A stretch of DNA of 64,000 bases from an uncultured delta proteobacterium (lineage in GTDB: Bacteria; Desulfobacterota; Binatia; Binatales; Binataceae): positions 1,024,001 through 1,088,000 of the forward strand of contig CAVQEQ010000001.1 in NCBI GenBank assembly GCA_963711565.1, given 5' to 3'. The notes beneath the pieces are model-generated. The model made no database searches, was not told where the DNA came from, and saw nothing but the letters and a program-made list of their open reading frames with translations. How positions within the stretch are numbered: the stretch's first letter is position 1; the number at the start of each line of letters is the position of its first letter. This document shows, one piece after another, positions 18,830 to 25,149 of the stretch. A program made the position numbers and the translations under genes.

Positions 18830-19983
18830 GTGAGCGGACGCTTCACTTTCTATGAGTTCTTCGCCGGCGGTGGCATGGCTCGATTGGGTCTTGGTGAACG
18901 TTGGCGATGCACCTTTGCCAACGACATTTGCGAGAAGAAGGCCGCTTCGTACCGTGCGAATTTCGCACCTGCGAAGGAACTGCTGGTACGAGACATCTCC
19001 AAGGTAAAGCCGTTCGACCTTCCCGGTCGTGCGCAAATGGCTTGGGCATCCTTCCCCTGCCAGGATCTGTCGCTTGCGGGGTCAGGAGCCGGTCTGGATG
19101 GAGACAGAAGCGGAACATTTTGGCCGTTCTGGAAGCTGCTGCAAAACTTGAGGTCCGAAGACAGGGCACCGCGAGTCGTTGTGTTGGAAAACGTCGCGGG
19201 TGCGCTGACATCTCATGGCGGAGAGGACTTTGCTGAGATTTTTCGCGCACTCGTTCGAGTCGGCTATCGCATCGGGCCCATGGTCATGGATGCGATCCAC
19301 TTTCTACCGCAATCTCGTCCGAGGTTATTTGTACTAGCGGTCGAGACAGAACGAGAGATCCCCCGATCGCTCATCGCTTCCAGCGCCATTAAACCTTGGC
19401 ACCCCCGGGCTATTGAAGATGTCTACACTTCTTTTAGCCCCTACTATCAACAGAAGTGGATCTGGTGGGGACTTCCCCCCCGCCGAATTGCGACATATCA
19501 ATAGACGATATGATCGAGGACGAACCAACTGGTGTTGAGTGGCATACGCGCGATGAAACGGCACGTTTGTTATCCCACATGAGTCCGCTGAATCTTTCAA
19601 AGGTTGATCAGATCCGAGGTAGCGGAAAGCGCAGGGTAGGTTTTGTTTACCGGCGTACTCGACCTCAGGCCGACGGACAAAAGCGCCAGCGCGCCGAAGT
19701 TCGGTTCGACGGCATTAGCGGTTGTTTGCGAACACCCGTCGGTGGTTCGAGTCGCCAGATTGTCTTAATCGTCGAACGAGGTCAGCTCCGCTCGCGCTTA
19801 CTTTCCCCGCGCGAAGCCGCTCGACTCATGGGACTGCCTGACACCTACCGACTACCCGAGAAATACAACGAGGCATACCACGTTGCCGGCGACGGCGTTG
19901 CGGTCCCGGTTGTTCGACATCTAGCAGAGAATCTATTGCATCCGATTCTGAATCCGCGCGAGCGATTGGAAAGAGCTGCGTGA
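18830..19983 (+). pseudogene. DNA (cytosine-5)-methyltransferase, frameshifted at a C7 tract (19475-19481)
   Basis: Motif I FAGGG, IV SFPCQDLS, VI LENV and VIII QSRPR in ORF 18830-19504; motif IX REAARLMG and X GDGV in ORF 19456-19983; one added C fuses the two. Confidence 0.85.
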
Positions 19984-20711
19984 AGAGCGAAAGCAAGCTC
20001 GACAAAACAAAAGACCCACCTTTTGAGACTCGCGAACTACGTCGCAAGCTTCAGGAGTTCCTCGATTCCGAAATAGTTGATCCCGCCACTGGCAAGAAAG
20101 TCAAAATTGGGAACTATAAGTTCGGAGTATATGCTTTCTTCGACTACGACGGTGAGCCAATTTACGTTGGCCAGACGAACGAAAAGCTGCGTACACGGAT
20201 CCGCCGTCATCTGACCAACCAGCGGACAGACGCGGTCGCAATGAACGTGCTCGATCCATTTGAGGTATACGAGGTCGAGGTGTGGCCGCTTCCGCAATTT
20301 GAGGGACGTGCAACCGGAGATGTCGAAGCAGCCAACTACCTGAACGCGCTCGAATACGAGGTATTCGAAACCGAATTGAGTCGTTCTCGATTCAAGGCCG
20401 TGCTTAACGAAGTAGAACCAGGAAAGCCCGGGAAGCGCGCCCAAAAGCCGAAGTCTTATCGCCGAAGGATTGTGTCGGAGGAAGTATTCAAAATTCGTAG
20501 CCATCCAGATCTAAGAATCGCGCGCCGCGCGGCGACGTTAGCCCGCTTGGCGCACGTGATAAGCGAGCGCAGAGTACAGTCGGGCTTGAGAAAAACGCTG
20601 CTCACGCAGGCGAAGCGATTGGAATGGCTAGCAGAACGTCGGTATGAAGGTGCAGCAGACGAAATCGAGGACAGCGAAGCGTCCGCAGCGGAGGACGAAG
20701 ACCACCTTTAA
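19980..20711 (+). CDS. GIY-YIG nuclease (putative restriction endonuclease)
   Basis: GVYAF..PIYVGQT..LRTRIRRH; overlaps the methylase stop (GTGA). Confidence 0.8.
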   Translation: MKSESKLDKTKDPPFETRELRRKLQEFLDSEIVDPATGKKVKIGNYKFGVYAFFDYDGEPIYVGQTNEKLRTRIRRHLTNQRTDAVAMNVLDPFEVYEVEVWPLPQFEGRATGDVEAANYLNALEYEVFETELSRSRFKAVLNEVEPGKPGKRAQKPKSYRRRIVSEEVFKIRSHPDLRIARRAATLARLAHVISERRVQSGLRKTLLTQAKRLEWLAERRYEGAADEIEDSEASAAEDEDHL

Positions 20712-20745
20712 TCTTGAGAAGCCGAGCGCAGCGCGCAGCAGCATC

Positions 20746-21132
20746 ATGAGGGCGGTGCGCTCGATCAATACCACGCCTGAAAAGAAGGTTCGTTCTCTAG
20801 TCCACAGGCTCGGCTTTCGCTTTCGTCTACACCGATCCAACCTACCGGGTAAACCCGATCTCGTTTTTCCATCGAGGAAAAAAGCCCTCTTTGTCAACGG
20901 ATGCTTTTGGCATGGCCATCGCTGTCAACGCGGTGCACGAATTCCCAAGACGAATCGAAGCTACTGGCTGAAAAAAATTGCGGCTAACCGTTCTCGCGAC
21001 CACCAGACTAAGCGTGCCCTCTCGCGACTTGGTTGGAGAAGCCTTGTAATCTGGGAATGCGAACTTAGCCACGTTCAAGCTACCCGCAAGCGAATTGGAA
21101 AATACCTCGGCTCGACTGGCAGCTCCCGATAA
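20746..21132 (+). CDS. vsr: Very short patch repair endonuclease
   Basis: NTTPE, LPGKPDLVF, FVNGCFWHGH and IWECE; start may be 20644. Confidence 0.9.
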   Translation: MRAVRSINTTPEKKVRSLVHRLGFRFRLHRSNLPGKPDLVFPSRKKALFVNGCFWHGHRCQRGARIPKTNRSYWLKKIAANRSRDHQTKRALSRLGWRSLVIWECELSHVQATRKRIGKYLGSTGSSR

Positions 21133-22148: not shown

Positions 22149-22979
22149 TCACTCGCGCGGTTCGCTTTTCCATTCCTCGGGATAGAGCAGCAGCAAGTCC
22201 TGGCCGAGCGCGCGCACCAGGAATCGCTGCGTCTCATTGATCGCGCGTTCGAGCGCCCGCCCGCCGATCAGCCAATGCCCACGCCCCGCGATCTTCGCCA
22301 GCTTCGCGCCGATCGATTCGGCGAAAGCTTTCGTCTGCGCAATCGGCGCGAAGATATCCGAGTCGCCTGCGACGACGAGTCGCGGCGCGGCTTTCTCCGA
22401 TGCGGCGAACTCGATCGCGCCAGTCATGACGTCGGTCGCCAGCACGCCCGAGTCGGGCACCATCGCATTTATCAAACCGTCCCGCGTGAACGGATCGGAA
22501 TCGGCGATCAACTCGAACAAGGCTCGCCCACGCGGCGGCTTGATCGGTCTGCCGAGCATCATCGCGAGCCGATTCGCGAATCCTCCTACCAGCGGCGTGC
22601 GGAAGCCCGGCACCAGCGGCGCGTATGCGACCGACGCCTTCACCCGCCGATTCTCGCTGAGCTTGAGCGCGATCAATCCGCCGACGCCATGACCGAGCAC
22701 GACGGCGTCGCGGCCGATTCCGTCGAGCGCTTCGCCCGCCAGGGCGGCCAGATCGTTGAAGCGAAGTTTCTCGAGCGGCGGCGTCGAGCCCTTGCCGAGT
22801 GCGGCCCGCAGATTCGGCACGAACACTTCCCAGCCGATCGACGCGAGGTAACCGAGCACGAGCGCGAGATGCCGCGGCGTCGCGAACAGTTCGGGGACCA
22901 GCATGATAGGCGATGCGAACTTGACCGGCTCGGGCAGCTCGCGCTGCGCGGGGATGCGGCCGAGTTCAACGTCGTCCAC
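22149..22979 (-). CDS. Alpha/beta-hydrolase fold protein lacking the nucleophile Ser
   Basis: VLGHGVGG elbow (Gly in place of Ser), GDSD and GRGHWL. Confidence 0.75.
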   Translation of the reverse strand: MDDVELGRIPAQRELPEPVKFASPIMLVPELFATPRHLALVLGYLASIGWEVFVPNLRAALGKGSTPPLEKLRFNDLAALAGEALDGIGRDAVVLGHGVGGLIALKLSENRRVKASVAYAPLVPGFRTPLVGGFANRLAMMLGRPIKPPRGRALFELIADSDPFTRDGLINAMVPDSGVLATDVMTGAIEFAASEKAAPRLVVAGDSDIFAPIAQTKAFAESIGAKLAKIAGRGHWLIGGRALERAINETQRFLVRALGQDLLLLYPEEWKSEPRE

Positions 22980-24324: not shown

Positions 24325-24358
24325 AAAAGGAAAGAGCCCCCTCTTTCGAGGGGGCTCT
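24325..24358 (-). terminator. Intrinsic terminator
   Basis: AGAGCCCCCTC-GAAA-GAGGGGGCTCT followed by TTCCTTTT. Confidence 0.85.
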
Positions 24359-24460
24359 CCCGTGTTGCGAGGCCTTTCAGCCTCGGCTTATTCCAGCAGC
24401 AATCCTGGCAGCCTTAGCCAGCCCTCGGGGTATTAGCCCGAAGGTAAACTCGTTAAGTGG

Positions 24461-24565
24461 TTACTTCTTTTTGGTCTTTTTGGCAGCTTTCTTTTTTGCC
24501 ATTTTGCTCTTCCGCATCGGTTTGGACTTGGTGGCCTTTTTGGCCCGTTTCTTCATTCCTGGCAT
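24461..24565 (-). CDS. 34-aa Lys-rich basic peptide MPGMKKRAKKATKSKPMRKSKMAKKKAAKKTKKK
   Basis: Strong SD AGAGGAGG, own promoter and terminator; below the ORF-track size cutoff. Confidence 0.75.
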   Translation of the reverse strand: MPGMKKRAKKATKSKPMRKSKMAKKKAAKKTKKK

Positions 24566-24646
24566 AGGTACCTCCTCTTCCTAGGCTGCTGCTGGAGAAG
24601 CGCCTTTTCTTATAGATGAGAGGTCATCTCTCATCGAGTCGGGCCG

Positions 24647-24675
24647 ATTATAGAAACATGTTATTCTCAAATCAA
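24647..24675 (-). promoter_or_regulatory. Sigma70 promoter for the Lys-rich peptide gene
   Basis: TTGATT-17 nt-TATAAT. Confidence 0.75.
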
Positions 24676-24810
24676 GGGCCATCACGTGATTTATAAAGAA
24701 ATTTTAAAGTCGGAAGAGTGCAACCGAACCGGTCACTTTAGGGCCTTTAGAATGACGTTCAAAATTAGATGCCTTGAACTCGGCCCGGCGCTTGAATTAC
24801 GATTGCTGGG

Positions 24811-25149
24811 ATGACCCGCTTAAGCTTCGTACTCCGCCGCGAGTGGCTCAGCCTAATCTTCGGCGGGGTGCTCGTGATGCTTATCTTAAGCGCGCTCCTC
24901 GGCAACCTGGGGCCGCGCGACCTCGTTGCCCTCCAGAGCCATCGTGCCGCGTTGGAGGCCCGCCGCGATCAACTGGCAGCGGACAACGCAGCGTTCAGAA
25001 CGCGCATTCAGAAGCTTCGTTCAGACGACCGCTATATCGAAAGCCTCATCCGCCGTGAGCTGGGCTACGCGCGTCCCGATGAACTCGTGTACAAGTTCGC
25101 CGACGGAAACGATGCCGACCACGGCAACGATTCTGCGCCCTCGCATTAA
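24811..25149 (+). CDS. ftsB: Septum formation initiator (FtsB/DivIC family)
   Basis: N-terminal TM helix, coiled coil, IESLIRRELGYARPDE. Confidence 0.85.
   Translation: MTRLSFVLRREWLSLIFGGVLVMLILSALLGNLGPRDLVALQSHRAALEARRDQLAADNAAFRTRIQKLRSDDRYIESLIRRELGYARPDELVYKFADGNDADHGNDSAPSH

Follow-up and report, generated by a model that had tools for sequence, protein, structure and literature searches.

In the hbs mRNA of Bacillus subtilis, a segment of the 5' UTR that follows a 5' hairpin forms a 14-bp interaction with a stretch immediately ahead of the terminator; this interaction limits cleavage by RNase Y, and RNase III plays no part (PMC5737220). Among H1-like proteins, Hc2 of Chlamydia is 165-237 aa long (PMC2848022), and AlgP of Pseudomonas has a folded N-terminal domain and an H1-like tail of KPAA repeats, KPAA peptides being able to bind DNA (PMC9239181). 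The small basic ribosomal proteins bS22 and bL37 have 33 and 24 aa, respectively (PMC10081302), and the full-length aapA1 mRNA is inert and is activated by 3' trimming (PMC5416894).

The window analyzed here, meaning the whole stretch of 64,000 nt, contains on its minus strand a unit of promoter, Shine-Dalgarno (SD) sequence, 34-codon Lys-rich open reading frame (ORF), and terminator, placed back-to-back with ftsB. Like hbs, the unit is a short monocistronic histone-like message with a strong SD, a 5' hairpin, and a helix that joins the 5' UTR to the stretch before the terminator and leaves the SD outside; RNases Y and J, known from hbs, are also encoded in this genome. It differs from hbs, which encodes the folded HU protein, in encoding a polycation of 13 to 106 aa across lineages, in a helix that is known from class-wide covariation, and in the extra hairpin that follows this helix. 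The product resembles Hc2 and the AlgP tail as a low-complexity chain rich in Lys, Ala, Pro, and Thr whose length varies with repeat number, but the peptides are mostly 25 to 36 aa, down to 13, against 165-237 aa for Hc2, and they lack the folded N-terminal domain reported for AlgP. To our knowledge, those of 13 residues would be the smallest stand-alone H1-like peptides known.

Layout of the unit and its reading frame

A first-pass annotation had proposed a promoter, a 5' hairpin, an SD, an ORF, 3' hairpins, and a terminator on the minus strand, and every one of these parts was recovered where it had been placed. The features are as follows, in window coordinates.

24690..24708, minus strand: AT-rich tract 5' of the -35 element, presumably UP-element-like (64 home-family loci)
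24647..24675, minus strand: sigma70-type promoter TTGATT-17-TATAAT (sequence and family conservation)
24615..24635, minus strand: 5' hairpin (predicted fold)
24584..24601, minus strand: 5' arm of the long-range helix (fold and covariation)
24571..24578, minus strand: Shine-Dalgarno sequence AGAGGAGG, outside the helix (sequence and accessibility prediction)
24461..24565, minus strand: ORF for the 34-aa Lys-rich peptide, net charge +18 (frame conservation)
24422..24444, minus strand: 3' UTR hairpin within the loop (8 pairs, 92% paired, 7 changing on both sides)
24407..24419, minus strand: small GGC/GCC hairpin or helix extension, weak (3 pairs, 83% paired, 0 two-sided changes)
24386..24405, minus strand: 3' arm of the long-range helix (fold and covariation)
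24368..24385, minus strand: hairpin immediately 3' of the helix (6 pairs, 97% paired, 2 changing on both sides)
24325..24361, minus strand: intrinsic terminator (8 pairs, 91% paired)
24811..25149, plus strand: ftsB (DivIC family), divergent neighbor (PF04977, E 3.6e-14)
22149..22979, minus strand: alpha/beta hydrolase, conserved downstream neighbor in other families (domain search and neighbor comparison)

The unit DNA was matched in 137 of the 165 genomes of the order, which consists of a single family. The 116 home-family loci comprised 30 from the first search, 6 more of the genus, and 80 picked across genera. Genomes normally carry a single copy of the unit, whose position beside ftsB is fixed; ftsB was divergent and about 230-257 nt off in 115 of these loci. 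On its other side lies a FAD oxidoreductase gene, which here separates the unit from the alpha/beta hydrolase gene; the gene 3' of the unit varies in the home family, being the FAD oxidoreductase in 52/116 loci. The promoter was the sole promoter-like site within 1.4 kb (shuffle mean, 0.3), and the -10 hexamer with a TTG-starting -35 element at equal spacing was found in 112/116 loci. The tract upstream of the -35 element had an AT fraction of 0.81, compared with 0.39 for the loci (64 home-family loci), and similar AT-rich tracts occur 5' of the -35 element in other families. The earlier description of a self-contained small gene with its own promoter, SD, and terminator is thus borne out across the home family. 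The promoter spacer also holds a palindrome, AACATGTT (24655-24662), whose flanking AAC and TTT are kept in the home family and which is a possible regulator site.

The 34-aa peptide contains 16 K and 2 R and no acidic residues. In 116/116 home-family loci, a K/R-rich ORF opened with an ATG behind an SD, and the distance from the ATG to the conserved stop was in frame in 112 of them, with eight lengths, so that the conservation asked of related genomes was found and the frame is under selection. The four exceptions were one frameshift, giving 47 aa, and three loci of one genus (L067, L070, and L071) with a 1-nt deletion that yields an Arg-enriched 18-aa peptide and a separate conserved 12-aa Lys frame. 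AAA-AAA dicodons were avoided in the ORFs (6/442 observed against 33 expected; 127/1143 genome-wide), a count in which kin are not independent and which selection against A-runs in the DNA could equally produce. Iterated AAA is reported to lower translation (PMC4363877), and the avoidance therefore fits selection on translation. Variable sites at the three codon positions numbered 16/21/26, a figure confounded by internal indels and therefore set aside. S14, K19, M22, and one KKK block were invariant within the home family, and AlphaFold2 predicted a helix at residues 15-33 (pLDDT 73, pTM 0.31); together, these invariant residues and the modeled helix could point to a specific site.

The long-range helix and its range across the class

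The 321-nt fold had a z score of -6.1, with 0/100 shuffles equally stable, and the long-range helix was present in both its minimum-free-energy and centroid structures. In alignment A1, composed of 64 home-family sequences less than 90% alike (mean pairwise identity, 65%), RNAalifold chose this helix unprompted. Its 14 pairs were formed in 90.8% of cells, and 11 of the 14 changed on both sides, a covariation reached by 0/500 shuffles; slid controls paired in 18-50%. The helix proposed by the first-pass annotation is therefore supported as a covarying element under selection. Further support came from the predicted energies, as own 5' and 3' arms averaged -28.1 kcal/mol, compared with -22.7 for swapped arms. 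The own partner arm ranked first in only 7/64 loci since many arms are near-identical. Covariation in A1 extended to the terminator and to the 3' hairpins on either side of the 3' arm, the hairpin after the helix being lost in L067. The 5' hairpin was weak, with 64-66% of cells paired at a place where the home-family alignment is poor. Within the genus (n = 33), identity was 95% for the 3' UTR, 92% for the ORF, 88% for the 5' UTR, and 84% for ftsB.

The helix had been described as ending directly before the SD. This holds in the window, but in most other-family loci the two are about 23-45 nt apart. For the full-length transcript of the window, the SD was predicted to be unpaired at 0.88, compared with 0.53 when the RNA was cut 20 nt past the stop; the home-family means were 0.64 and 0.50, the full-length value being higher in 22/32 loci. 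In other families, the SD had a mean unpaired value of 0.48 that varied between loci (predicted folds with noisy ends; 40/48 loci). From the 22/32 loci, a switch that hides the SD in the nascent RNA is only weakly suggested by these folding predictions.

Because profile searches missed the other families, their units were read from synteny, upstream of ftsB, together with a start-region pattern. Of the 20 family labels, 17 (f1-f7, f9-f13, and f15-f19) yielded a Lys-rich ORF behind an SD and flanked by promoter and terminator, mostly with the home-family layout. No unit was seen in the f8 and f14 genomes examined, and f20 was detected by profile only. Within 6-kb segments, 15/20 regions contained the unit, the misses being G233, G201, G190, G043, and a short contig of G235; G048 (f10) had none within its 3.2-kb segment. 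The unit sits 0.2-4 kb upstream of ftsB, pointing away from it and usually ahead of the alpha/beta hydrolase gene, with f3 showing only the hydrolase link. Peptide length ranged from 13 to 106 aa by repeat expansion, and the composition was 50% K, 23% A, and <0.5% D+E (27 loci, 17 families).

The helix arms were wholly different between lineages, with one type in f1, a separate type in genus g42, and others in f6 and f11, while f13 had perfect helices of 16-17 bp in two kinds. A 9-bp core, UCGCCUGAG/CUCAGGCGA, was common to f3, f5, f7, f9, f10, and f16. A crude first cross-family score gave the own arm pair as best in only 9/27 loci. Once the 3' segment was trimmed to end at the terminator, 21/27 loci (17 families) scored higher with their own pair than with any of six other-family controls, and the best 3' segment lay ≤29 nt from the terminator in 26/27. 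The other 6/27 loci did not beat the other-family controls, and no helix was found in f17.

Several lineage-specific elements were observed beside the helix. Most other families (L194-L253 and L340-L353) replace the 5' hairpin by a G-rich leader of GG/GGAGG repeats before the arm. Such a leader might form a two-tier G-quadruplex or, acting as an SD with no start codon, hold a parked ribosome that keeps RNase J off. Inside the loop, the f9 loci (L177, L178, and L193-L202) carry the 3' UTR motif GCTAGGCACGT, 11/12 aligned, and f6, f11, and f18 (L345, L346, L348, and L353) carry a GGCC-closed hairpin with a CAC loop in the 3' UTR. In L331, a more distant unit, the leader is shorter and the 5'/3' complement spans 10 bp, again with a different sequence.

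RNA contigs and database searches

Parts of the stretch were contained in 18 metatranscriptomic RNA runs, and contigs were examined for 8 runs from 7 studies, all chosen by this sequence. In 7/8 runs, one contig fell inside 24325-24627, the predicted transcript, and three of these contigs showed no difference from the window. The end of four contigs, which came from three studies, was at 24626-24627 (for two of them at adapter), some 13 nt short of the predicted start, and one contig ended at 24328, followed by eight non-genomic A residues on the RNA strand. In one run, a contig of 921 nt, differing at 88 positions, reached across the promoter as far as ftsB. The lack of contigs over neighboring genes in the RNA runs was not taken as an expression ranking. 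As they come from RNA runs only, and from runs picked by this sequence, the contigs are a hint of a discrete transcript, not of its level or strand.

Neither the window nor 12 loci of other lineages matched Rfam at the gathering score, so that no described Rfam family matches the unit; below gathering, only weak terminator-type matches were listed, with E up to 10. Neither the peptide nor its family matched Pfam, NCBIfam, or the PDB significantly, and PF07382 or an NCBIfam H1-like model was over cut-off in 0/57 home-family peptides and 0/6 long orthologues. Two members of the f7/f9 set matched Rv3852_fam weakly (best E, 0.00046). The first-pass annotation had called the locus unannotated. That stands for the family libraries, but an entry identical to the peptide, unnamed, is present in the ESM Atlas. 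Among named Atlas clusters the nearest, a lead, was HC2, with a score of 0.93 for the 106-aa orthologue and comprising 23% of members.

Profile A2 found 24/29 home-family genomes and 0/171 others, thereby understating the range, and when profile A3 was run on 301 genomes drawn from the phylum, 0 matches fell outside the class. A codon pattern found 6 loci in 5 genomes outside the class, which were not counted as members: 4/6 had H1-like ORFs of 46-92 aa, none with a clear UTR helix or ftsB match, and 2/6 were without an SD-led ORF. Over genome contigs, a codon pattern gave 85 stretches, and the 80 listed comprised 48 small SD-led ORFs and 32 longer or cut frames. Of the 48, 18 were titled Candidatus Binatia or Binatus and most others bore generic labels. 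All three longer frames tested were topoisomerase C-terminal regions (Toprim_C_rpt), at the end of which the motif KAKKKAPAKK also occurs. Profile A5 gave 599 candidates against genome contigs, with 0 confirmed, and a 60-aa orthologue as query gave 551 unscored candidates; a representative library yielded 9 candidate matches of 32-61 aa.

6S RNA usually lies between zapA and ygfA. RF00013 was unmatched in this genome and in 61 home-family genomes, but these misses are uninformative because the model also misses 83/105 other-family genomes and gives nothing in the zapA-ygfA spacer; the unit's fold did not form a rod with a central bubble. That spacer (G000:C1:212757-213080), about 300 nt long and upstream of rny, has no Rfam match and is a candidate divergent 6S RNA. 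A tmRNA reading was rejected, as none lies in the window and the genome's tmRNA is on C3. A processing stem of the rRNA type was likewise rejected, the host 16S leader/spacer stem being unlike the arms by eye and A1 containing no boxA.

Interpretation of the peptide and the proposed closed loop

On balance, we favor the reading that the unit is a conserved stand-alone gene for a tiny Lys-rich polycation that likely binds DNA or other polyanions by charge, as the histone H1 tail does, from an mRNA whose ends are predicted to pair and thereby probably protect it from decay. The likeness to histone H1 drawn in the first-pass annotation agrees with the composition (50% K, 23% A; Lys/Ala/Pro-rich with few acidic or aromatic residues) and with the repeat-based length series of 13-106 aa. 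Action by charge is suggested because length changes by repeats and splitting is tolerated, and the same two properties disfavor a fitted ribosomal pocket. A stabilizing loop was proposed because the layout matches the hbs mRNA and the relevant enzymes are present: the genome encodes RNase J, RNase Y, and RNase III, with RNase Y and RNase J matches over cut-off. By this analogy, it is reasonably probable that the closed loop stabilizes the message. The near-consensus promoter and AT-rich upstream tract would drive a transcript of ~315 nt ending at the terminator, and the 3' arm, once made, would pair with the 5' arm and enclose the SD, the ORF, and one hairpin in a loop. In this loop the SD would stay unhidden, so that the full-length RNA could be translated, and RNase Y cleavage of the UTRs, like the entry of RNase J, would be hindered by the helix together with the hairpins beside it. 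The outcome may be a steady and abundant supply of polycation for nucleoid compaction. The gene signals, the selection on the frame, the covariation of the helix, the layout across the class, and the RNA contigs over the unit are observed; translation, stabilization, and DNA binding are what we infer. Against this reading stand the presence of five HU/IHF-family genes in the genome and the lack of any member above an H1-like cut-off, and the fixed 9-bp core in six families counts against stability alone since stability needs no fixed sequence.

That core, kept while the peptide spans 13-55 aa, also speaks for a dual-function RNA, with the fold binding an RNase, RNA polymerase, or its own peptide in feedback and the helix as the recognition site. 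The order of genus identity (3' UTR 95% > ORF 92% > ftsB 84%), the conserved 3' UTR motifs in f9 and in f6/f11/f18, and the absence of RF00013 matches noted above would fit such an RNA. However, the arms were wholly replaced several times (f1, g42, f6, f11, and two forms in f13), from which it was concluded that pairing matters more than sequence; moreover, a separate zapA-ygfA spacer exists where 6S RNA would sit, and no Rfam match was obtained. This explanation was deemed unlikely. Similarly unlikely is an ancestral class-wide module of RNA plus peptide, a closed-loop mRNA in which the 9-bp core would be a protein or peptide recognition site and the RNA would have a role of its own, whether as a scaffold, as a sponge, or as a sensor for feedback by its own polycation. 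An accessory small ribosomal protein that fills an rRNA pocket, as do bS22, bL37, or eL41, was considered rather improbable. The unit's product resembles these in being small and strongly basic, comparable in both respects to bS22 (33 aa) and bL37 (24 aa) (PMC10081302), and in that gene callers readily overlook it; a PF08213 gene is absent elsewhere in the genome, and the home-family peptide has a predicted C-terminal helix and invariant positions. Unlike them, it has no PF08213 match or PDB relative, its orthologues vary by repeats and are in some cases split, and it is Lys/Ala-rich with low Arg (5%). The invariant residues, predicted helix, fixed core, and 3' UTR conservation nevertheless keep the ribosomal and dual-function explanations alive.

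A pure polycation cannot be assigned to DNA by sequence, and its main partner might be another polyanion, polyphosphate granules or bulk RNA; AlgP is reported to localize to polyphosphate granules and to space them (PMC9239181). No polyphosphate gene was seen among the identified neighbors, and the folded N-terminal domain described for AlgP is missing from the peptide, so this partner was judged distinctly improbable. The hok mRNA has a small ORF in a folded message with 5'-3' pairing. A type I toxin mRNA like hok or aapA, silent until its 3' end is trimmed, would share with the unit this small ORF, the 5'/3' pairing, and a long structured 3' UTR, and control of translation by such pairing had been suggested at the outset. 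The translational lock was not upheld: the helix does not include the SD, whose predicted openness is greater at full length, no hydrophobic stretch was found (the best 11-residue hydropathy segment across all 116 peptides was 0.17, and that of the window's peptide was -1.34), an antisense sigma70-like promoter was seen in 0/64 loci, and the unit is single copy as a rule at a fixed chromosomal place beside ftsB. A toxin mRNA is accordingly very improbable. Equally hard to credit is a Lys-sensing leader peptide attenuator controlling the downstream gene. The short Lys-rich ORF, the hairpins, the terminator, and the co-oriented gene beyond, in many families the hydrolase, have the outline of one, but the next gene varies, lysine genes include neither the FAD oxidoreductase (52/116) nor the hydrolase, about 100 nt separate the stop from the terminator, and the covarying helix joins the 5' UTR to the 3' UTR and leaves the terminator intact.

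For the favored reading of an H1-like polycation on a closed-loop message, each of the two ingredients has a precedent. A search of openly accessible articles located no published account of the unit, of the combination, of so small a size, or of a class-wide helix of turning sequence. The unit represents a small-gene family without a name together with an RNA motif; Pfam, NCBIfam, and Rfam contain neither, and both are kept through most of a widespread uncultured class. Its natural series of 13-106 residues with split forms makes the minimum length of an H1-like polycation testable. Pairing of 5' and 3' mRNA ends was previously known from single cases such as hbs, and a position-fixed, repeatedly rewritten helix is strong comparative evidence that it can persist over deep time; this suggests a shared design for nucleoid-protein messages.

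Some other features of the genome were recorded in passing. Small basic SD-led ORFs of 35, 41, and 68 aa were located at G000:C3:1131909 (+), C3:1189726 (-), and C1:738903 (+), respectively, and the 35-aa ORF, being Arg/Lys-rich, is the better ribosomal-peptide candidate by composition. ARAGORN called a tRNA-Sec at G000:C1:1184871-1184966. In the window at 18830-21132, a DNA cytosine methyltransferase-like product in overlapping frames (18830-19504 and 19456-19983) was recognized by eye, together with GIY-YIG-like nuclease and Vsr-like endonuclease ORFs.
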